From Dehalococcoidia bacterium (GTDB lineage: Bacteria; Chloroflexota; Dehalococcoidia; Lucifugimonadales; Lucifugimonadaceae): a DNA stretch of 64,000 bases. A model generated the notes under the pieces. The model had not been told where the DNA came from, ran no database searches, and saw only the letters and a program-made list of their open reading frames with translations. Both the position numbers and the translations under genes were made by a program. How positions within the stretch are numbered: the first letter of the stretch is position 1; each line of letters starts with the position of its first letter. The DNA is taken from the NCBI GenBank assembly GCA_965208645.1, contig OZ242350.1:2535475-2599474 (forward strand), in the 5' to 3' direction. Below are positions 15,935-59,673 of the stretch, piece by piece.

Positions 15935-17608
15935 TCAACCAAACTGAACCCCCTGATCCGCTAGATCAATCATGTCCGGTTCGCGATTGGCGAATGCGGT
16001 CAACATGACTGGCAAATCCGGATATTTTCCGGAGAAGTAATCCTCGATCGTAAACAGTTGAAGCTTCGGATACGTTCGTCCAGCGATTTCGACCGTTCCG
16101 ACGGCGAGGTCACTGCGCACACCAGATGTAGTCGAATTGTTGTCCATCACTATTAGGACACCCATGATCGCTCCGCTGTCGGCCATGCTGCCCAACATCT
16201 CGCGTACAACACTCGCACCGACGTTTTTGCCGCCTTTGACTTGCGCCATCACCAAATGGCGTTGTCCATTATCGCGAGCGTAACCGCGCCCATCAATCCC
16301 GCGATCCCCCGTTTTCCGTTCATTTGGCAACATCCCGCGCAGTCGCGAAACCGCCCATGCTTCAAATTGAAACGGGTCCCGATCGAATAAGTCACGGGCC
16401 GCGTCCATGTCTTCAGGTCGTCCGATCACGTTCGGCTGTTCATTCAAACGCTCGCGAAATCGGAATTCAACCACTGCGATGGCAAGGTGTGTGATGTCGA
16501 TTCCGATCCAAGGGCGGCCTGAAGCTTGCGCGACATGCAGCGTAGTACCGCAACCGCAATATGGGTCCATCACCAATCCATCCTTCGGACAAGCCACTTC
16601 GACCAGTTGCTTTAACAACCCTTCCGGCTTTTGCGTTGGATAACCTAAATACTCCTTGCCCTTGTTGTAGTTCGTGAAACCGATCGGGTCGAGTACCAGG
16701 TTCTGCGGACCGGAAGGCGTGTCCGCTGCCGCGTATCGTTTCAATCCTGGCCAAAACCCTCGTTGAGGGTGATGAATCAATCCAGCATCATCCAACGCGT
16801 CCAACCTGTCGTGGACACCAACGATTGCCCGATAGTCGGGAATGAAATTCTCTTCGATCCACTCTGCGTAACTGCTGGTTTTAGGGATCGCCCAATGGCG
16901 ATTCCTAGCGTCAACATCGTAACCACTCCATGGTTTGCCGCTCTCCCCTCCCCGTTTTTCGGCTGCTGTGAGGTCTCCAGTTCTAAACCGACCAAATTCG
17001 TCCGAAGACGGATAGCGTTTTGCCAGCTCCGATTCTGTGCGACTGACGGATATTGCTTGACCTCGCCAATACGAGACGTCGCCCTTCGCGTACAGAAAAA
17101 TCGTATCGACTATCCGACCAAATCGTTTCGCATCGTTGTGCGCGGTAGCCCGACGCCAATAAACTGCGTTTCGATAATTTGTGGCTCCGAAAACCGCGTC
17201 CAAAAGCAACTTCACGTGATGACTAGCGGTGTCGTCACAATGCAGATACAGAGAACCTGATTGCTTCAATAGCCGCCGCATTTCATGAAGCCTCGGAGCG
17301 AGATGGCAAAGATATGCGAACATGCCGGAACGGCCCAGCATAGTCTCAAATCCTTGGATCACGGTTGCCAATTCGCCACCAGCCGCTAACGCAGAGTCAC
17401 GGTCCTTAACGGCCTGTTGCCCCCAACGCCAAGTGTCCTCGAATGCGCGCGCTTGAGCCGACGCATCTCCGAGACCAGATACAAAAAGTTGGTTGTAGGT
17501 TTGGTTCGAATTGAACGGCGGATCAAGATAAATCAGGTCAACCGAATCGGATGGCCATTGACGCATCCAGTCAAAGTTGTCACCGTAGTACAGGGAGTTT
17601 GGAAGCAT
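15935..17608 (-). CDS. beta-class N6/N4 DNA methyltransferase fused to a C-terminal Mrr-like PD-(D/E)xK domain
   Basis: Motif IV (IYLDPPFNS) precedes motif I (MDPYCGCGTTLHVA), which is the beta-class order. The C-terminus TGDRGIDGRGY...LVMAQVKGGKNVGASVVREMLG resembles the Mrr catalytic core. The start is trimmed to MLPNSLYYGDN (17608). Confidence 0.75.
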   Translation of the reverse strand: MLPNSLYYGDNFDWMRQWPSDSVDLIYLDPPFNSNQTYNQLFVSGLGDASAQARAFEDTWRWGQQAVKDRDSALAAGGELATVIQGFETMLGRSGMFAYLCHLAPRLHEMRRLLKQSGSLYLHCDDTASHHVKLLLDAVFGATNYRNAVYWRRATAHNDAKRFGRIVDTIFLYAKGDVSYWRGQAISVSRTESELAKRYPSSDEFGRFRTGDLTAAEKRGGESGKPWSGYDVDARNRHWAIPKTSSYAEWIEENFIPDYRAIVGVHDRLDALDDAGLIHHPQRGFWPGLKRYAAADTPSGPQNLVLDPIGFTNYNKGKEYLGYPTQKPEGLLKQLVEVACPKDGLVMDPYCGCGTTLHVAQASGRPWIGIDITHLAIAVVEFRFRERLNEQPNVIGRPEDMDAARDLFDRDPFQFEAWAVSRLRGMLPNERKTGDRGIDGRGYARDNGQRHLVMAQVKGGKNVGASVVREMLGSMADSGAIMGVLIVMDNNSTTSGVRSDLAVGTVEIAGRTYPKLQLFTIEDYFSGKYPDLPVMLTAFANREPDMIDLADQGVQFG

Positions 17609-17718
17609 TTCGACGATGCAATAATCCTCGGAGTTGATACAGATCAACTATACGGACATTTTCGAATTCGTCACGAGGAAATGGCAGGTTATTCAGACGA
17701 TCTAGCGGTTCCAGCGCT

Positions 17719-19925: not shown

Positions 19926-20792
19926 TCAAGCCGATCGCGCTTCGATAATCTCCAACACACCGGCGATGTCGTTCTCGCCCCAATCGTTGTCCATCATCGC
20001 GTGGAATAGCTCCTCGGACTTGATCGCCAATTCCAGCGATAGGTTCTCGGCCTTTGCCAAGTCTTTGATGATGCCCATGTCCTTGTCGAGGTTGCGGACC
20101 GGCGCAGCCGAGTTCTCAAAGTCTCGAGCCGCCGTTATCGGAGTACTGCGCTCAACCATCGCGCTACCGCCCCAAGCGACACTCAGCAACTCGCCTGCAA
20201 CCTCGATATCAACACCCGCGGCGTTTGCCAACGCGAATGCTTCGGCGGCCGCAACCGTGTTGACCCCAACCAGCAACTGGTTGATTAGCTTCATCGCCGT
20301 CCCCGCGCCGTTCTGTCCCATGTAACGCACGTTGGCACCCATCAACTCGAAATACGGCATCGCTTTCGTAAATGCCTCTTCCGAACCGCCGCACATGATC
20401 GCCAGCGTCCCGGCGGCAGCACCAGTTGGCCCGCCGCTAATCGGGGCATCAATGAACATCGCCCCTTTCGCCTCCGCAGCCTCCGCACACGTTCGAGAGG
20501 TTCCGATGTCGACCGTGCTGTGGTCCACGATAATCTGACCGGGCTCACACGCCGGGATGACCTCGCCGACTATCACATCCAAAGATGTCTGCACACTCGG
20601 TAGACAAGCCAGAACCACATCAACCTTCGAAACCAGATCCGACGACGAACTCGCACCCTTGGCGCCGCGATCGATCATCGCCTCGATCTTCGACTGCGTC
20701 CGCGTGTAAACGACGGGATCCGCACCCTTGGCGAGCAGATTATCCGCCATGCCTTGGCCCATGTAACCCAGTCCGATGAATCCTACCGACAT
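19926..20792 (-). CDS. NAD(P)-dependent oxidoreductase, 3-hydroxyisobutyrate / tartronate-semialdehyde reductase family
   Basis: N-terminal Rossmann signature VGFIGLGYMGQGMADNL, plus PISGGPTGAAAGTLAIMCGG. Confidence 0.85.
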   Translation of the reverse strand: MSVGFIGLGYMGQGMADNLLAKGADPVVYTRTQSKIEAMIDRGAKGASSSSDLVSKVDVVLACLPSVQTSLDVIVGEVIPACEPGQIIVDHSTVDIGTSRTCAEAAEAKGAMFIDAPISGGPTGAAAGTLAIMCGGSEEAFTKAMPYFELMGANVRYMGQNGAGTAMKLINQLLVGVNTVAAAEAFALANAAGVDIEVAGELLSVAWGGSAMVERSTPITAARDFENSAAPVRNLDKDMGIIKDLAKAENLSLELAIKSEELFHAMMDNDWGENDIAGVLEIIEARSA

Positions 20793-21097
20793 GTTCAGTC
20801 GCTCCTTAAACTAGCATGCTGAGACGACGCCGTGCGCGCCGATAGTCAATTGTGCATCAAAAATCGACGCACTCGTTCGCTTTAGATAGACGCCGAAAGT
20901 ATATAAGCGACGGCAGGTACCATTCCTGCGAACTCGGGAACCCAAAGGCAATTCACGAGGCAGACCTCCTGATCTGCTTGAGCAACGTTATGCGATTACC
21001 TAACCACCGATTCTTCGCCAACACACGAATATCAACGCTTGCGATGGTGGTAGAAATAGAAAGCGCCTTGCATGAACCGGGCGCTTGGTGAGCTAAC

Positions 21098-21190
21098 GGA
21101 GGGTGCCGTCGAGGCGACGAACGGGACTGCAACTCCCGGGGTTGCTAGACAGATCCTAGCATCGCGGTTCGATTCCGCCACCCTCCGCCA
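21098..21190 (+). tRNA. non-canonical 93-nt tRNA (allo-tRNA / tRNA-Sec-like fold, anticodon GCA, discriminator G, CCA encoded)
   Basis: Manual fold. 8-bp acceptor 21098-21105/21179-21186. D stem 21107-21111/21115-21119. Anticodon stem 21122-21126/21134-21138 with loop CTGCAAC (U33, GCA at 21129-21131, A37). Variable arm 21139-21163 with a 6-bp stem. 4-bp T stem GCGG/CCGC around the TTCGATT loop. G at 21187, then CCA. Confidence 0.75.
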
Positions 21191-21290
21191 ATAAAAAGCT
21201 GTGCGCTTTCGTGAACCGCGACACGCGCTATTGTATACGCTCAACCACGAGCGCGCAGTTGCTCAACCACACATCCATGTCCGACTGACT

Positions 21291-22340
21291 TTAGTCGAGT
21301 TGCCGCAGTCTCGGATCCAATCGGTCTCGCAACCAATCCCCGAAGAAGTTCATCGCCATCACCAGCAAGAAGATGGACAGTCCGGGGAAGAATGACGACC
21401 ACCAGACATCGTTTATGAGGTACTGATAGCCCTCGTCAACCATCTTGCCCCACGTCGGAGTCGGGTCCGGTATTCCAACGCCCAAAAAGGACAACACCGA
21501 CTCTGTCAATATCAATCCGCCAACTCGTAGTGTCGCGATCACGAGAACGGTGCTAACGGTACCCGGCAATATGTGTCGCATCATCAAGCGCAGATTGCTC
21601 GCACCCATGATACGCGCCGCCGCGATGTAATCTAGCGACCGAATGGTAAGAACGTCGGCACGAATCTGCCTAACGAACGGCGGCCAGGCGATCATCGCGA
21701 TGATGATGATCACAGTCGTCTCCGTCGCGCCGATGGTGGCGCCCACCATGATGGCGACCAACAGGAATGGCAACGCGTTCCAAATATCGACGAATCGCAT
21801 CAGTAGCTCGTCGATCCATCCACCGTAGTACCCGCCAAGGATGCCCATCGCCGTCCCGATAATCACACCGGAAAGCAAAGCGTATCCCGATACCTTCAGC
21901 GAAACCCTCGCACCGTGAATGATGCGCGAAAGCACGTCCCGGCCCAGTCCGTCGCTGCCCAGGATGAATTCGTTGCGAGCGAACCCCTTCTTCGCCGCGA
22001 TCTTGTACCCAATCAAACCTTCATCGGTTGTCAGGTCAAAATCGGCCTCGTTGGCAGCGGTTTCGTTCGCCGGATGCGCCTGTCCCCAAGTCGGAGCCAA
22101 CAAATTAAAGTTCAACTTCTGGAGTGCTGGGTCCGTCGGCGAGATGAAATCCGCAGCAAACGCAACGAAAGCGATCGAGACCAGGATCACGATCGGGATT
22201 ATCGGCCAACGTCGCAACACGTACCAGATCTGAGATGGTATCGAGCGACGAACACTTCGAAGACCAGTCGTCGGGGCGTCCAGTTGCTGAACCGCCTCTG
22301 CAGCGGCTAATCCGCCTTCTTGTCTCTGGTCAGTCGCCAA
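21291..22340 (-). CDS. ABC transporter permease (DppC/OppC-like)
   Basis: Multi-pass membrane protein with the BPD_transp_1 signature (LDYIAAARIMGASNLRLMMRHILP). Confidence 0.85.
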   Translation of the reverse strand: MATDQRQEGGLAAAEAVQQLDAPTTGLRSVRRSIPSQIWYVLRRWPIIPIVILVSIAFVAFAADFISPTDPALQKLNFNLLAPTWGQAHPANETAANEADFDLTTDEGLIGYKIAAKKGFARNEFILGSDGLGRDVLSRIIHGARVSLKVSGYALLSGVIIGTAMGILGGYYGGWIDELLMRFVDIWNALPFLLVAIMVGATIGATETTVIIIIAMIAWPPFVRQIRADVLTIRSLDYIAAARIMGASNLRLMMRHILPGTVSTVLVIATLRVGGLILTESVLSFLGVGIPDPTPTWGKMVDEGYQYLINDVWWSSFFPGLSIFLLVMAMNFFGDWLRDRLDPRLRQLD

Positions 22341-22374
22341 TGTTTCGTCTCAATGCTTGTCGCCGTTGGTTGGT

Positions 22375-23325
22375 TTAGTCGAACCTTATCCGTGGATCCA
22401 CCAACGCGTAAACGATGTCCGTCAAGAATGTCGCGAGCACATAAACCAAGATGAACATCAATACCGCGCCCTGCAACGTCGGAAAGTCGTTACCGTGAAC
22501 AGCTTGGATCGCCATCTGGCCGATGCCCGGACGTGAAAATATCGTCTCCACTACCAACGCACCCTCGATAAATCCAGCGAAGGCCAATGTCGATGCCGTC
22601 AGCGGTTGAATCAACGCGTTGCGAAACGCGTGCTTCCAAATCACATAGGACGTCGCAACACCCTTCGCCCGCGCCAACTTCACGTACTCAGAATCGAGCA
22701 CCTCCAGCATCGCAGAACGAGTTAAGCGAAGATAACCCGCCAATCCACCCAAAGTCATCGCTGTCACCGGTAACACGAGATACTCCAGCTGCCAAAGTGA
22801 CGGTTCCTGCGTCGAATCGCCCGCCAATCCCGCAGGTAACCAATCTAACCACACTGCGAACACATAGATAAGAATTATCGCGAACCAAAAAATCGGTATC
22901 GATTGACCGATTAAGGCAAGAAATCTACCGCCATAGTCCGGCAATGACGCCCTTTTGACCGCTGACAACACACCCAGTCCCACACCGATAACTCCTGAAA
23001 ATACCCAAGCGAATGTGCCAAGTTGGAGACTATGCGGAATCTTCTCGGTGATTATCCGGGCCACCGGCAACTTGAACGCCAATGTCTGCCCCAGGTCGCC
23101 ACGCAGCACCCGACCAAGCCAAAGAATGTATTGCACCGGATAGCTCCTGTCGAGCGCGAGCTCCTTGCGAATCTCAGCAACCGCTTCGTCAGAAATGCCG
23201 TAGCCAGACGTGGCGAAAAGCAACAAAGGGTCACCCACCGCACGTGACAACGAAAATACGATCGCCGTCGCCGCGATCGTGCTCAAGATCATGAAGAGAA
23301 ATCTTCTTATGAGAAAGCGACGCAT
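22375..23325 (-). CDS. ABC transporter permease (DppB/OppB-like)
   Basis: MRRFLIRRFLFMILS is the typical start, and EYVKLARAKGVATSYVIWKHAFRNAL follows. The start is trimmed from 23415. Confidence 0.85.
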   Translation of the reverse strand: MRRFLIRRFLFMILSTIAATAIVFSLSRAVGDPLLLFATSGYGISDEAVAEIRKELALDRSYPVQYILWLGRVLRGDLGQTLAFKLPVARIITEKIPHSLQLGTFAWVFSGVIGVGLGVLSAVKRASLPDYGGRFLALIGQSIPIFWFAIILIYVFAVWLDWLPAGLAGDSTQEPSLWQLEYLVLPVTAMTLGGLAGYLRLTRSAMLEVLDSEYVKLARAKGVATSYVIWKHAFRNALIQPLTASTLAFAGFIEGALVVETIFSRPGIGQMAIQAVHGNDFPTLQGAVLMFILVYVLATFLTDIVYALVDPRIRFD

Positions 23326-23551
23326 GGTCAGATTAGTTGCTAGTTCACGCACTCGCGTGCAATTGAGTTTACTCCAATAGCGTGCATCACGCGTGAACCG
23401 CCTTAGACGATCCACCCTCGCGGCGAACCAGATCGCGGCATCTTTCGCCGCGCATACTCGTCAACCGCGAGGGTGCACTGTGCTTACGTCACCGGACATT
23501 GTCGGATTGCGCCGAAAAGTCCGATGACGTGTAATTCAGGTTTGAAGCTGA

Positions 23552-25765
23552 TCAGTTAGCCAGCTCGATGTCCCAAAGGTTGTTGATACCGCTTGCCGCT
23601 GCTCGGTCCTGTGGCCAAGATGCGATCTTCTTGCGGTTCCAGAACCAGTCCTGCGGGACTGCCACGACGCCGGGCTGCAGGTTCCAGTAGTAGACGTACT
23701 GGAGATAGCGGTTCGCGAAGTCGGTAGCCTCTGCAGTGTCACTTGCGGACGCCATTCCCTCGTAGAGTTCAAGGATTTTCGGCGACTCAAAGCCACATGC
23801 GAAACCACCACGCGTCAGGCTGGTCTGAACCAGACCCTTCGGGAAGTGCCACGGGTTCGACTCGCGACCTTTGTCGCAAGAGGTGATCCACGGGTGAACG
23901 TTTGCCCGGTTGACAACCGTCGGGCGGAAGGTCACATAGGTGAACTTCAGCGAGAAGGTCGAAAGTCCGATGTCGGACCAGTAACCGGCAACTGCGTCTG
24001 CAACTTCACCGGTAACCGATGCGCCACCACCAAGCTCAGGACCTGCGTAGACCGAGACCTCGAAACGGTGGTCCCCCAAGTCGGAGGCCACGTTGGTCTT
24101 GCGCCAGTCAGGGTCTTGCGCCTTGATGATCTGCACTGCTTGAACCGGGTCGTACTCGTACGTGCAAGGGCCATCACCTGCGGGAGCTTCGTCGGTGAAC
24201 GCTGCACCTGCGGCCTGCGTGCACTGCACATTCGCAAAGTTGGGGTGCGAAGAGGCGAAGTACTCAATGTCGACAACATTTCCGAGACCGGCCAACAACG
24301 AGTCGTTTACCGCATCGCGGTCAACTGCGATCGCCATGGCGTAGCGCACGTTTCGTGCCTGCTCCATGTCGTCGGCGCCGTGCGAATCACTGTCGGAGTT
24401 ACCAATCCATGCGTGGTCGTGCACGAACGGGCCTTTGGGCGGAAGCGGTTCGCCTGACTTGGCGTCTGTAGTCTCCCAGAGGTTTCCGGAGAAGAAGATA
24501 CCGAGTTGGACTGCGCCACCGGTTCCAGACTGACCCCAGTTGGACGAGTCGACGATCAAGTTCGCCGCGTCCTTGGGCTCAAGCTGGGCCGTGTCGATCT
24601 GACCAGTGCGCAACAGCGTTGCACGGTTGGTCGGGTCGCCTGCCTGCACCATGATTATGGTGCTGGTCTTCGGGTTGAAATTCCAATGATCTGGATCTGC
24701 CGTCAAAACAATTCGGTCGTCGGCAATCCATGTGTCGACCAAATACGGCCCGCTAGCAACGATGGTGTCTCGTACGAAGTCTTCGCCTTCGGTGTCAAAA
24801 GCGTTCTTCGAGAGAACCGGGAATGCTTGACCGGACTGGTTGACGTAGTCGTCTTTCCAAGTTCCGTCAAACGCCGGAGTACCATCCGCTTTCGTGGCGA
24901 AATTCCACTCAACGGTGTTTGCGTCGACGACGCGCCACTCACCCCAGAGACCGGCAAAGTCGCCAGCCTGACCGTGGATCGAGGTCTTGTTAGTCGCGTT
25001 GTTGGCGTCGTTCATGCTCCAAGCAACATCTTCGGCAGTCAATTCGCCGTAGCTCTTGTCCTTGGTGCGGAAAGTGATGCCGTCTTGAATCGTTACGCTA
25101 CCAGTAGTTAGGTCTGGGCTGATGGTCCAGTCGGTCGCGACCCACGGGACAGTCTCGTCGCTCGCACCACGGCGGAACAGCGTCTCTGCAACTCCCCAGT
25201 TCTTGAGCGCGTCGGATGCCTGGTTGGCATTCCTGCCGACCTGCTGCCCAATTGTCGCGTTACCGATCACGGCGGCGCCGCCTTCAGTCTTGGGGTCCGG
25301 CGCTCCGACGGTGCCAATCAAGCTCGCAGTCGCCGTAGGTTCTGGTGCCATCACCTCAACCTCTTTGATGACCTCGACGGTCTGGACGACCTCGACCTCT
25401 TTCTCGACGACGACGGTCTGGACGACGGTTTCGCCCGCCACCTGGACCTCTTTCTCGACGACGACGGTCTGGACGACGGTTTCGCCCGCCACCTGGACCT
25501 CTTTCTCGACGACGACGGTCTGGACGACGGTTTCGCCCGCCACCTGGACCTCTTTCTCGACGACGACGGTCTGGACGACGGTTTCGCCCGCCACCTGGAC
25601 CTCTTTCTCGACGACGACGGTCTGGATTACTGTCTCACCCTGTACTTGGACCTCTTTTTCGACGACGACGGTCTGAATCACCGTCTCGCCACAGGCCCAA
25701 GCTGCCAGCGCGGCTATAGCTACCGCACTCGCCAGCAAGAACTTTCTACTTGTACTCATCTTCAA
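23552..25765 (-). CDS. ABC transporter substrate-binding protein (family 5, peptide/opine/nickel type) with lipoprotein signal and 17-aa repeat stalk
   Basis: A signal plus Cys (LAAWAC) is followed by (GETVVQTVVVEKEVQVA)n repeats and then an SBP_bac_5-like body. It lies upstream of two permease genes. Confidence 0.85.
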   Translation of the reverse strand: MKMSTSRKFLLASAVAIAALAAWACGETVIQTVVVEKEVQVQGETVIQTVVVEKEVQVAGETVVQTVVVEKEVQVAGETVVQTVVVEKEVQVAGETVVQTVVVEKEVQVAGETVVQTVVVEKEVEVVQTVEVIKEVEVMAPEPTATASLIGTVGAPDPKTEGGAAVIGNATIGQQVGRNANQASDALKNWGVAETLFRRGASDETVPWVATDWTISPDLTTGSVTIQDGITFRTKDKSYGELTAEDVAWSMNDANNATNKTSIHGQAGDFAGLWGEWRVVDANTVEWNFATKADGTPAFDGTWKDDYVNQSGQAFPVLSKNAFDTEGEDFVRDTIVASGPYLVDTWIADDRIVLTADPDHWNFNPKTSTIIMVQAGDPTNRATLLRTGQIDTAQLEPKDAANLIVDSSNWGQSGTGGAVQLGIFFSGNLWETTDAKSGEPLPPKGPFVHDHAWIGNSDSDSHGADDMEQARNVRYAMAIAVDRDAVNDSLLAGLGNVVDIEYFASSHPNFANVQCTQAAGAAFTDEAPAGDGPCTYEYDPVQAVQIIKAQDPDWRKTNVASDLGDHRFEVSVYAGPELGGGASVTGEVADAVAGYWSDIGLSTFSLKFTYVTFRPTVVNRANVHPWITSCDKGRESNPWHFPKGLVQTSLTRGGFACGFESPKILELYEGMASASDTAEATDFANRYLQYVYYWNLQPGVVAVPQDWFWNRKKIASWPQDRAAASGINNLWDIELAN
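25396..25690. repeat. 51-bp coding tandem repeat (4 perfect, then about 2 degenerate units)
   Basis: The units 25396-25446, 25447-25497, 25498-25548 and 25549-25599 are identical (CCTCTTTCTCGACGACGACGGTCTGGACGACGGTTTCGCCCGCCACCTGGA). The following units diverge. Confidence 0.95.
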
Positions 25766-32782: not shown

Positions 32783-34039
32783 ATGCACCCCCATCAAATC
32801 CTGAACGCCATCGCCGATCTCCCGCGCATCCCCCTCGCGCGCAAAAATACGCCCTTCGAGGAGATGCCCCGCCTCCGCGCCGCCATCGCCGAATCCATGG
32901 ACGCCGAAATATCTGCCGTCCCTCCCCTCTTCATCAAGCGCGACGACACCACCGGCTTTGCCTTTGGAGGCAACAAAGCCCGACATATGGAGTTCCTCTT
33001 CGCACACCTCATCGAGCGCGGTATCGACACCATCGTTAACATCAACCACTTCGACTCCAACAACGCCCGATTAGCCGCGGCGGCTAGTGCAAAAACCGGC
33101 ATGAAATACCACTGGGTAGCCTTCGACGAGCTAGACGCACCCATCCAAGGCAACATGCTCATAGCCCACCTCACTGGCGCCAACATCCACCGCATTTCCA
33201 AAGACGAAACCCGACCTTACGCCGAAAACCTCCTAGCCCAAGAAACCAACCTCGGGCGCAACCCCACAATCCTTCTAGACAACCCTTTCTCCAACATAGC
33301 CGGCATGATCGCCTTCCTAGAAACCGCTCACGAAATAGACAACCAAATCAAACGTCATTCCGAAGCACCCTCCCGTCATTCCCGCGAAAGCGGGAACCTA
33401 GAGGCAGGGCCGGGTACGGGAGACAACCGTCCCCTTTCGGAACGAAAGGGGACGCGAGCGAGCGCAGCGAGATCGCAGGGGTATGCGGAGGTGGACGCGG
33501 GGCATACCGCGCAACCCCTCTCCACCAACTCCCCCATTCATTTCTGGGGACTATGCGGACGCTCCATCGCCGGCATAATCCTCTACGCCCGCAACACCGG
33601 AAAATCTTGGACCGCAACCGCCGTAGCACAACCCCACTACACCCCCGAAAACTACGAAGAACTATACCTAGACCGCTCAACCCGAGTAGCCGAGCTCCTA
33701 AACTTAGACACCCCCCTTAAACCCGACGACATCACCACCCTAACCGGCTACACCAAAACCTACGGCGTTCCTACGGATCTAGGCATCGAAGCGATGCACC
33801 TAGTAGCCACAACCGAATCCATCATCCTGGATCCGACCTACACGGCTAAATCGATGTCCGCCCTAATCGCCGAAATCCAACTCGGCAACCTCGACTCAGA
33901 CGTACCGGTAGTCTTCATCCACTCCGGCGGCCAACCTCAAACCTTCGCTTTCCCTAACCAAATCTGGAACCACAACCTCAAAGTTCTCATTCATGGTGGA
34001 AATGTTCTAAGGCCAAAGGGTCACACCGCGATATCCTGA
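32783..34039 (+). CDS. PLP-dependent ACC deaminase / D-cysteine desulfhydrase family protein carrying an in-frame repeat-element insertion
   Basis: FIKRDDTTGFAFGGNKARHMEF carries the PLP Lys, with LDPTYTAKSM and FIHSGG also present. Residues encoded by about 33354-33520 are translated repeats, and the last ~15 codons also lie in a repeat. Confidence 0.7.
   Translation: MHPHQILNAIADLPRIPLARKNTPFEEMPRLRAAIAESMDAEISAVPPLFIKRDDTTGFAFGGNKARHMEFLFAHLIERGIDTIVNINHFDSNNARLAAAASAKTGMKYHWVAFDELDAPIQGNMLIAHLTGANIHRISKDETRPYAENLLAQETNLGRNPTILLDNPFSNIAGMIAFLETAHEIDNQIKRHSEAPSRHSRESGNLEAGPGTGDNRPLSERKGTRASAARSQGYAEVDAGHTAQPLSTNSPIHFWGLCGRSIAGIILYARNTGKSWTATAVAQPHYTPENYEELYLDRSTRVAELLNLDTPLKPDDITTLTGYTKTYGVPTDLGIEAMHLVATTESIILDPTYTAKSMSALIAEIQLGNLDSDVPVVFIHSGGQPQTFAFPNQIWNHNLKVLIHGGNVLRPKGHTAIS
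33354..33520. repeat. repeat-element cluster (family A half-site, family A unit, family C hairpin element) inside a CDS
   Basis: GTCATTCCGAAG..., GTCATTCCCGCGAAAGCGGGAACCTAGAGG (33375-33404), and TCCCCTTTCGGAACGAAAGGGGACGCGAGCGAGCGCAGCGAGATCGCAGGGGTATGC (33430-33486). The last is related to 35492-35542 and 36490-36540. Confidence 0.85.
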
Positions 34040-58379: not shown

Positions 58380-59348
58380 CTATCCCAATCCCGAAGGTGC
58401 CTGTCGACGCAATTTCCGTCGCAGCTCTTTGTGGTCGGGGATCACACCCTCGACGATTTTCCAAAAATCAGCCGAATGGTTCAACTCGATCAGATGCGAC
58501 AACTCGTGAACAACTACATAGTCGATTAGGCGATCGTCCAGCATAATCAAACGCCAATTCAAGTTGATGGAGCGCTTACCGCTGCAACTGCCCCACCGTT
58601 TTTTGGCATTGCTCAACTTCAATTGGCTTGGTTTGACGCCCATGACGTTTCCGAATTCGCCGACCCGCGACCTGAGATGATCCCACGCCTCCTGCCGGTA
58701 CCAATCCTCTAAACATCGCCGGACGATTCTCGGTCGTTCTTCTGCTGAGATACCCGGCGGAATGGTCACTTCAACGATATCCCCTTCCAATGACTTGGCA
58801 ACTGTAGGAGGTAGATCTCTGCCAAAGTCGTCCCATTCTCGCTCTTTGACCACGACATTTGCTGTTCGTCCCCGCAACATCGTCGTACCGCCGTTGCCCC
58901 AATCCACTTGATTTTTAGTGTCTACGATATTGACGCGATGTTCGAGTATCCAATCTGAACGTTGGATCAGAAAGTCGTTGATCTCCTTTTCGGTCAAGGT
59001 ATGCGGGACGAGTACTTTGAGCCCCTCTTCCGGATCGAGTTGGAGTTGGATGGTACGGCGGCGGCGAGTGCTGCGTTGCAAGACATAGGAGACGTCTTCG
59101 CCGTTTAAGTTGATCGTGCGCGTTTCCCGTGACAATCGGGCACGGATTGGGATTCGTACAGCCACTGATCGTGGTTTCTCGCGGGTCACGAAAGATTCGC
59201 CCGCGACGTTGTCATCGCGGGCGTAACTCGCTGGTGGAGACGGGGGAGGGTCGAACTCCCCGTCCAGAAAGTTTCCCGTCAAAGCTTCTACGTGTGTAGC
59301 CGTTGGTTGCTTATACCGCTTCCGGACGATGCCAACGGCGTCCGCCAC
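58380..59348 (-). CDS. DUF45/YgjP-like M48-family zinc metallopeptidase with ~100-aa N-terminal extension
   Basis: KKRWGSCSGKRSINLNWRLIMLD...VVVHELSHLIELNHSADFW (WGSC plus the HExxH motif). Confidence 0.75.
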   Translation of the reverse strand: MADAVGIVRKRYKQPTATHVEALTGNFLDGEFDPPPSPPASYARDDNVAGESFVTREKPRSVAVRIPIRARLSRETRTINLNGEDVSYVLQRSTRRRRTIQLQLDPEEGLKVLVPHTLTEKEINDFLIQRSDWILEHRVNIVDTKNQVDWGNGGTTMLRGRTANVVVKEREWDDFGRDLPPTVAKSLEGDIVEVTIPPGISAEERPRIVRRCLEDWYRQEAWDHLRSRVGEFGNVMGVKPSQLKLSNAKKRWGSCSGKRSINLNWRLIMLDDRLIDYVVVHELSHLIELNHSADFWKIVEGVIPDHKELRRKLRRQAPSGLG

Positions 59349-59673
59349 AGGTCACGGTTGCCGGTTACCTTTGGACGTGCTACCGGCATTGCACATCCGC
59401 ACCTCAGATTTTCGGTGCCCGATAAGTGCCGCTGAGGGCGACTCCTACCGGACATCGCGGCTGATTAAGCAGCTGCGAGGGCGACTTCTCGTTCGCCGTT
59501 TGTGTTTTTGCCCGTTTTATCGTGGTCAGGCACCACGACACGCAACCTTGCGGTACGCTCCCTGTCGAATCCACTCGTCCCCTTACGTTTACTGATTATA
59601 CCTGACAATCAGTGATCCATAATCGTTGAACTACCCCTGTTCTTGTATCATTGCGGCTCTACTCTACTCACCG

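Follow-up and report, generated by a model that had tools for sequence, protein, structure and literature searches.

A stretch of 64,000 nucleotides (nt) from a Dehalococcoidia bacterium (contig OZ242350.1 of assembly GCA_965208645.1; hereafter referred to as the window, with positions counted from its first letter) carries, at 21098–21190 on the plus strand, a 93-nt class II tRNA gene that combines the cysteine anticodon GCA with a body of the serine type. Its acceptor stem has 8 bp and its T stem only 4 bp (the 8/4 geometry), its variable (V) arm is long, the discriminator at position 73 is G, and the CCA end is encoded. Sequence and fold alike make it a member of the phage-type (8/4) tRNA-Ser/allo-tRNA family described by Mukai et al. 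(2017; PMC5389517). The reading that we favor, with a probability of roughly one half, is that a horizontally acquired (8/4) tRNA-Ser/allo-tRNA, probably of phage origin, is charged with serine and causes low-level missense decoding of cysteine codons as serine.

Read from its 5′ end, the gene consists of GGAGGGTG-C-CGTCG-AGG-CGACG-AA-CGGGA-CTGCAAC-TCCCG-V arm-GCGG-TTCGATT-CCGC-CACCCTCC-G-CCA, all on the plus strand. The 5′ acceptor strand GGAGGGTG (21098–21105) pairs with CACCCTCC at 21179–21186. The D arm (21107–21119) has a 5-bp stem, CGTCG/CGACG, and a 3-nt loop, AGG; the anticodon arm (21122–21138) has a 5-bp stem, CGGGA/TCCCG, and a regular 7-nt loop, CTGCAAC, with U33, A37 and the anticodon at 21129–21131. 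The V arm (21139–21163) comprises 25 nt, GGGT-TGCTAG-ACAGATC-CTAGCA-TC, in which a 6-bp stem (TGCTAG/CTAGCA) encloses the 7-nt loop ACAGATC. It is followed by the T arm (21164–21178), with the 4-bp stem GCGG/CCGC and the loop TTCGATT, and by G73 and CCA (21187–21190). A first-pass annotation of the sequence had drawn this fold by hand, and its account of the stems, the GCA loop, the V arm, G73 and CCA is exact. ARAGORN, which that annotation had proposed to run, called a 93-nt tRNA with anticodon GCA at identical coordinates, and a strict purine/pyrimidine cloverleaf pattern built from the tRNA's own sequence hit no other site in the window and nothing in 100 shuffles.

General covariance models were less receptive. 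Rfam at its gathering threshold gave no match at the locus, and the general tRNA model RF00005 gave none even at E values up to 10. The model for selenocysteine tRNA (tRNA-Sec), RF01852, scored the gene at 44.1 bits against a cut-off of 47 bits, a match visible only in permissive mode. The Rfam alignment would add a ninth acceptor pair (C-1:G73), which we rejected because a -1:73 pair is not conserved among the relatives described below. The minimum-energy fold of the lone sequence is not a cloverleaf (z-score -2.4), so structural support has to come from covariation in relatives.

We gathered relatives by architecture-pattern scans of viral contigs and metagenomes (L-numbers denote the fetched loci). 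Dozens of 84–92-nt tRNAs with the same layout were recovered, sharing a GGAG start, 16 nt including an AGG D loop between the acceptor and anticodon stems, a 4-bp T stem and an 8-nt 3′ acceptor strand. All the relatives found have a serine anticodon, UGA or CGA; matches of a broad viral scan with the anticodons CUA, GUA or GCU were kept out of the family set. Wherever neighboring tRNAs were called, the relatives lay in phage-type tRNA clusters, some of which also hold a normal 76–80-nt tRNA-Cys. Over its first 25 nt, the window tRNA shows two mismatches to the phage genes in L145, L178 and L179, and its acceptor stem is identical to those in L175, L184 and L185; since the relatives were retrieved with patterns taken from this tRNA, the similarity in the 5′ half, D stem and anticodon stem is inflated.

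In the family alignment of 18 sequences (A3), the 8/4 cloverleaf was paired in 93.7% of cells, as compared with about 50% for slid controls. All 18 sequences form acceptor pair eight (8:66; GC in ten, AU in seven, GU in one), whereas the alternative fifth T-stem pair, which would give a 7/5 geometry, formed in only 7 of 18 and would be C.C in the window tRNA. Four of the eight acceptor pairs were altered on both sides, as were all four T-stem pairs, for which 100% of cells were paired. The search patterns had left acceptor positions 5–8 and the T stem free, so that covariation there did not arise from the way the sequences were selected; for the D and anticodon stems, which the patterns fixed in part, the evidence carries less weight. 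The first-pass annotation had proposed looking for compensatory changes in the 8/4 helices, and such changes are thus found in both. The D-loop AGG, whose GG presumably represents G18-G19, was invariant. The outermost, fifth D-stem pair is C:G only in the window tRNA, L117 and L145, and C.A in most family members. Position 73 is G or U, or C in one case. The anticodon loops of the relatives read TTTGAAC, CTTGAAC or TTCGAAC, from which the window tRNA departs at positions 34–35 only.

To evaluate family membership quantitatively, we used a covariance model, R1, for which 15 members of the 8/4 tRNA-Ser family from phages and metagenomes were taken and the window tRNA was excluded. R1 scored the window tRNA at 77.3 bits (E = 6e-19). 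Its scores were 20–27 bits for 8/5 tRNA-Sec genes with anticodon GCA, 23 bits for a 7/5 serine-like tRNA and 19 bits for the window's own tRNA-Leu. The phage 8/4 tRNA-Ser genes themselves reached 35–42 bits on the Rfam tRNA-Sec model; thus, the 44-bit match of the window tRNA is the usual near-miss of this family and provides no evidence for selenocysteine. Allo-tRNAs were in fact originally discovered as sub-threshold tRNA-Sec matches, and (8/4) tRNA-Ser molecules were reported from phages and placed within the (8/4) allo-tRNAs (PMC5389517). The first-pass assignment to an 'allo-tRNA' or tRNA-Sec-like class on the basis of the 8/4 geometry, the long V arm and G73 therefore stands, although the covariance-model check that it had suggested came out divided, with a high score on the 8/4 family model, no match on RF00005 and a tRNA-Sec score under the cut-off.

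A long V arm together with G73 or U73 is taken as the identity set of seryl-tRNA synthetase (SerRS) (PMC5389517), and both elements are present in the window tRNA, whose 25-nt V arm contains a 6-bp stem and whose discriminator is G. With the structural reading and the family assignment upheld, serine is the best inference for its identity. The tRNA would have arisen from a phage-type tRNA-Ser whose serine anticodon was changed to GCA. SerRS ignores the anticodon and would recognize the long V arm, helped by G73; because the enzyme is blind to the anticodon, the host SerRS is predicted to charge this tRNA with serine. Since all family features except anticodon positions 34–35 are kept, the tRNA should be serylated and read UGC and UGU. 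Acceptance by EF-Tu is expected, as for other tRNAs with a 12-bp 8/4 branch. An (8/4) allo-tRNA(GAG) from Silvibacterium bohemicum put serine at the leucine codon CUC in E. coli (PMC5389517), which shows that SerRS, EF-Tu and the ribosome are all compatible with a tRNA of this shape. In competition with the normal tRNA-Cys at UGC and UGU, a low level of Cys-to-Ser substitution would follow, and the outcome would be a tolerated ambiguity in decoding rather than a reassigned code. An engineered yeast tRNA-Ser(GCA) gave the highest misincorporation of the set tested, with almost no growth defect (PMC6125640), and by analogy makes tolerance of serine at cysteine positions plausible.

Reassignment of the cysteine codons was considered and rejected. 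In eight neighboring genes, the UGC and UGU codons of the window align with cysteine in relatives that lack the tRNA: 9 of 9 in IlvD, 5 of 5 in a solute-binding protein and, in a homocysteine methyltransferase, 5 of 5 against the relative in L118 and 4 of 5 against the more distant L127. The alignment of these codons with conserved cysteines shows that the code is not reassigned. Cysteine codons account for 0.95% of all codons, a normal usage.

The gene stands where the first-pass annotation had placed it, alone between an oxidoreductase gene and the end of an ABC transporter operon: its neighbors are a 3-hydroxyisobutyrate-dehydrogenase-like gene (19926–20792) and the permease that closes a peptide-type ABC operon (21291–25765), both on the minus strand, so that the plus-strand tRNA gene is antisense to both. 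A look-up of the dehydrogenase-like protein by exact sequence gave no match. It is carried by a strain-variable intergenic cassette of about 360 bp (20912–21275; alignments A1 and A2), which sits in a hypervariable spot that a conserved AAAGTATATAAGCGA motif and a REP-like hairpin immediately precede. We obtained syntenic loci by way of homologues of the adjacent permease; the names of its more remote homologues put the organism in the Chloroflexota, close to Dehalococcoidia. The same tRNA is present in L117 (permease 99% identical at the protein level). In L180 (98%) it is absent; its place is taken by an element of about 90 nt, conserved, structured and unrelated to the tRNA, which also occurs in L123, L125, L126, L181 and L182. 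The intergenic region is empty, about 160 nt long, in L118–L121, L124 and L183 (about 85%), and L122 and L127 have other sequence at this spot. In a blastn search with the cassette flanks, L117 was the only one of all fetched loci to match, apart from the REP-like repeat inside the window. The search for orthologous loci that had been proposed thus located the tRNA in L117 only, with close relatives lacking it. Because the gene is accessory and varies between strains, it cannot serve the organism as its sole tRNA for cysteine.

The two carriers, strains about 6–8% diverged, allow an estimate of constraint. Between the window and L117, the flanking genes differ by 5–9% and the non-tRNA part of the cassette by 22 of 271 positions (8.1%). 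Within the tRNA, only three positions differ, each of them in the 7-nt loop of the V arm, and the remaining 86 are identical (Fisher p = 0.003), a comparison of two sequences in which the loop was left out post hoc and which for the whole tRNA (3/93) gives p = 0.15. All stems are unchanged in L117, and the non-compensatory changes or disruptions that the first-pass annotation had named as a mark of a decaying pseudogene were not seen there. Purifying selection on the body of a functional tRNA is thereby supported to a moderate degree.

We also scanned sequence collections for counterparts with the same anticodon. Among 185,579 species genomes, the search for tRNAs that combine a long V arm, GCA, G73 and a GGTTCGANTCC T loop returned 114 loci, none of which resembles the window tRNA: they comprise 74 Burkholderiales tRNA-Sec(GCA) genes, a few 7/5 serine-like tRNAs and others unlike this type. 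A viral scan for GGAG...CTCC long-arm tRNAs with GCA had no match, and a metagenome scan gave 11 relatives, none with GCA. Thus, no second 8/4 GCA tRNA appeared in the species-genome, viral or metagenome scans.

Some of the tRNAs met in these scans merit description in their own right. The 74 Burkholderiales genes, which lie among L003–L116 (for instance L014 3275–3371 and L033 6483–6576), are canonical 8/5 tRNA-Sec species with GCA and G73; they are widespread in species genomes of Rubrivivax, Piscinibacter and other Burkholderiales and score 72–76 bits on the Rfam tRNA-Sec model. Bacterial tRNA-Sec with a cysteine anticodon was reportedly described by Mukai et al. in Angew Chem in 2016, and the Burkholderiales genes fit the published recoding of selenocysteine to cysteine codons. 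The 7/5 class II serine-like tRNA (GGAGAGGTGGCTGAGTGG...) occurs in metagenome-assembled genomes of Acidobacteria and Verrucomicrobia (L024 424–514, L031 6679–6771 and L104 662–757); its anticodon loop holds CTGCAAAG, for which ARAGORN gives an 8-nt loop and the four-base anticodon 'gcaa', and the molecule is possibly of a missense or frameshift type. A 91-nt long-V-arm tRNA with G73 and the anticodon CUA recurs without change in eight viral contigs (L139, L146, L148, L156, L161, L162, L166 and L167; for example L139 1197–1290). It is an amber suppressor that ARAGORN labels 'tRNA-Pyl', and its sequence suggests that these phages read UAG as a sense codon.

Several points weigh against serine charging and missense decoding as we propose them. 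The antisense position of the gene to both neighbors is one, and a search of its surroundings for a sigma-70-type promoter or a terminator gave no match. GCA is a major identity element of cysteinyl-tRNA synthetase (CysRS), so that some cysteinylation is possible, and several of the allo-tRNAs tested were inactive in translation, with non-translational roles proposed for them (both PMC5389517). To these have to be added the pattern-based retrieval of the relatives, the post hoc treatment of the V-arm loop, and the scope of the gene inventory (tRNA-Cys, serS, cysS and sel genes), which covers the 64-kb window only; within it we found no serS, cysS, SepRS or SepCysS and no selA, selB or selD.

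The alternative that survives best, though unlikely, is a tRNA-shaped RNA that does not decode but might act in regulation, be a target of recombination or a passenger of the hotspot, divert tRNA-targeting enzymes as a decoy, or donate an aminoacyl group in a non-ribosomal reaction. The translation-inactive allo-tRNAs and the want of a promoter would suit such an RNA, as would the cassette hotspot, where other strains have a different structured element of about 90 nt, and the repeated hairpins that flank the tRNA, with 21213–21221 complementary to part of the T arm. However, the features needed for translation are intact (the D-loop GG, the TTCGATT T loop, the 7-nt anticodon loop with U33 and A37, and CCA), every stem is perfect and unchanged between strains, and no biosynthetic, toxin-antitoxin or defence gene directly adjoins the tRNA.

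Close behind it in likelihood is what we regard as the main rival for the favored interpretation, an extra cysteine tRNA that the host CysRS would charge, partly or fully, by way of GCA despite G73 and the class II body, with faithful decoding as the result. Besides the role of GCA in CysRS recognition, a tRNA-Cys with G73 accompanies an altered CysRS in some methanogens (PMC8762117), the conserved cysteine codons in the neighboring genes agree with faithful decoding, and purifying selection is compatible with any translational role. Against this, the other major CysRS determinant, U73, is replaced by G (PMC5389517), the scaffold is that of a serine tRNA, the phages with this scaffold use an ordinary 76–80-nt tRNA-Cys alongside it, and close relatives live without the gene, which therefore is not an essential tRNA-Cys.

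It is rather improbable that the tRNA has been selected to make cysteine codons deliberately ambiguous in a free-living member of the Chloroflexota, be it by regulated Ser-for-Cys substitution under cysteine or sulfur limitation or oxidative stress, or with Ser-tRNA(GCA) converted to Cys-tRNA by an unknown enzyme; in both versions, a mobile intergenic cassette would bring about a natural and adaptive ambiguity of a bacterial sense codon. Still less credible is a neutral, recent remnant, that is, a phage tRNA-Ser with a mutated anticodon that is unexpressed and decaying. Only two of the related loci examined carry the tRNA, which is absent where the permease is 98% identical; no promoter was found, and the collection scans returned no other 8/4 GCA tRNA, all of which a remnant would account for. 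It would not account for the lack of any change in 86 body positions while the cassette flanks changed by 8% over the same time span, for the absence of any disrupted stem, or for two changes in the anticodon in a loop that otherwise still follows the family consensus.

The least likely alternative, which we consider very improbable, is a selenocysteine or selC*-type tRNA for cysteine codons, converted by SelA and delivered by SelB in the manner of the Burkholderiales tRNA-Sec(GCA): the near-threshold Rfam match, G73 with an 8-bp acceptor stem, the 12-bp tRNA-Sec forms in Chloroflexi and Dehalogenimonas (PMC5389517; PMC5330540) and the occurrence of tRNA-Sec with GCA in 74 of the species genomes scanned speak for it, but the match is unspecific given the scores of the phage serine tRNAs and falls far from the 72–76 bits of real tRNA-Sec(GCA), the 12-bp branch has no 13th pair or bulge, the D arm has 5 bp and 3 nt instead of 6 and 4, selC* has U73, the window holds no sel genes, and the close relatives all have serine anticodons. 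Of the first-pass proposal that the tRNA inserts serine, or selenocysteine after SelA conversion, the serine part is thus retained as the best inference and the selenocysteine part is unsupported.

The surroundings of the tRNA gene show further repeats and variable elements. The REP-like hairpin at the left edge of the cassette (CATTCCTGCGAACTCGGGAAC, 20921–20941, plus strand) is one of five dispersed copies of (GT)CATTCCCGCGnAnGCGGGAACCCAGAGG in the window, at 20921, 30083, 33377, 34792 and 54358 on the plus strand, as compared with none expected in 64 kb. The copy at 33377 lies inside an open reading frame (32783–34039) for a pyridoxal-phosphate enzyme of the D-cysteine desulfhydrase family, in a segment of about 66 amino acids that is missing from the family profile, and may represent an in-frame insertion of the repeat. 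Ten nt upstream of the tRNA is a hairpin, AAGCGCC...GGCGCTT (21061–21087), and a similar one lies downstream. Their loops form a direct repeat (D1), CTTGCATGAACCG at 21067–21079 and CTTTCGTGAACCG at 21206–21218, with the copies 139 nt apart, and the downstream copy can also pair without mismatch, over 9 nt (21213–21221), with the 5′ side of the T arm (21162–21170). These flanking hairpins and repeats could be the trace of an insertion, a terminator pair for the opposite strand, or chance. The alternative element of about 90 nt, exemplified by L180 2700–2790 (GGCCGGAGGTCGCCTA..AAGCGTAATTGG.GTCGCATC...CCTCCGGCC), has a 9-bp outer stem and fold z-scores of -2.5 and -3.4; the alternative cassette in L123 matched no Rfam family, and the element is perhaps an unknown small RNA or else a mobile hairpin.

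The neighborhood varies at a second spot as well, marked by a gene for a fused N6/N4 DNA methylase/Mrr-like endonuclease (15935–17647, minus strand) at a distance of 3.5 kb from the tRNA; L117, L119 and L121 have this gene, and it is absent or replaced in L118, L120 and L122–L127, sometimes by a DUF2442/DUF4160 pair. Farther away, the minus strand carries two copies of tRNA-Leu(UAG), one intact (2601–2684, 63.7 bits) and one with a mismatched 5′ acceptor strand, UGGCG... (500–583, 49.2 bits). Between them, the open reading frame 1263–2522 encodes an AAA-ATPase resembling the anti-phage MADS3/PtuA proteins, an arrangement suggestive of a small island that integrated at tRNA-Leu and left a duplicated remnant of the attachment site. 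A tmRNA gene at 59232–59582 on the minus strand (139.5 bits) has the predicted tag peptide GEREVALAAA.

The 8/4 allo-tRNA class was published in 2016–17, with anticodons for 35 codons (PMC5389517). What is new here is the host phylum, the cysteine anticodon on a phage-type serine scaffold (unless GCA is among the 35 published), the cassette and hotspot with empty and alternative alleles, and the evidence for constraint. Natural tRNAs whose amino acid identity and anticodon do not match are rare and show how the code becomes ambiguous or changes. The present case extends the 8/4 allo-tRNA class to the Chloroflexota and to cysteine codons, and links chromosomal missense forms to ordinary phage serine tRNAs, their seeming source. 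Strains with the tRNA, with a different element and with an empty site at one locus form a natural comparison set, in which metaproteomics or culture work could test for mistranslation and its effects on fitness. Should the tRNA be active, the label 'tRNA-Cys' that annotation pipelines give it would be wrong about the amino acid that it carries.

Among known systems, the (8/4) tRNA-Ser genes found in phages and in some bacteria are the closest. The window tRNA has in common with them the 8-bp acceptor and 4-bp T stems, a single-nt linker, the compact D arm with its AGG loop, the 5-bp anticodon stem, the long V arm, G73 or U73, and the encoded CCA. It differs in its cysteine anticodon, theirs being UGA, CGA or GCU for serine, in its solitary position on a Chloroflexota chromosome as opposed to phage tRNA clusters, in a V arm at the long end of the family's range, and in the fifth, C:G pair of the D stem.

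With tRNA-Sec(GCA) it shares the anticodon, G73, the 8-bp acceptor stem, the long V arm and the ARAGORN label 'tRNA-Cys'. We rejected an identity as tRNA-Sec, however, on the score under the cut-off and the different geometry: tRNA-Sec(GCA) has a 13-bp 8/5 branch and a 6-bp D stem with a 4-nt loop, and it scores high on Rfam tRNA-Sec and low on R1, whereas the window tRNA behaves in the opposite way on both models. The selC* tRNA-Cys has a similar tRNA-Sec-like shape, an 8/4 branch and, in some members, the anticodon GCA. It is described with U73 as CysRS identity and an A51a bulge, in anaerobes with a full selenocysteine machinery and often beside selB* or cysS* (PMC5389517); with G73 rather than U73, no bulge and no selB* or cysS* neighbors, the window tRNA is not a selC* tRNA-Cys. 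Nor is it a canonical tRNA-Cys, which has about 74 nt, class I structure, 7/5 geometry and U73.

The (8/4) allo-tRNA(GAG) of Silvibacterium bohemicum resembles the window tRNA in the 8/4 geometry, the serine identity elements, a non-serine anticodon and its status as an accessory gene. Such acidobacterial allo-tRNAs belong to another phylum, Chloroflexi being absent from the allo-tRNA taxa given in PMC5389517, and they are described with a D arm like that of tRNA-Sec, in which a long stem carries a tetraloop, and with a longer anticodon stem, as opposed to the 3-nt D loop and 5-bp anticodon stem here; moreover, no toxin-antitoxin genes adjoin the window tRNA. The compact D arm of 5 bp and 3 nt and the 5-bp anticodon stem are shared by the phage 8/4 members with serine anticodons, which places the window tRNA in this tRNA-Ser subgroup rather than with the acidobacterial consensus. 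The engineered yeast tRNA-Ser(GCA) (Zimmerman et al. 2018, PMC6125640) likewise combines a serine body with GCA and has the same predicted decoding outcome; as a synthetic 7/5 eukaryotic construct, it serves as an analogy for tolerance only.

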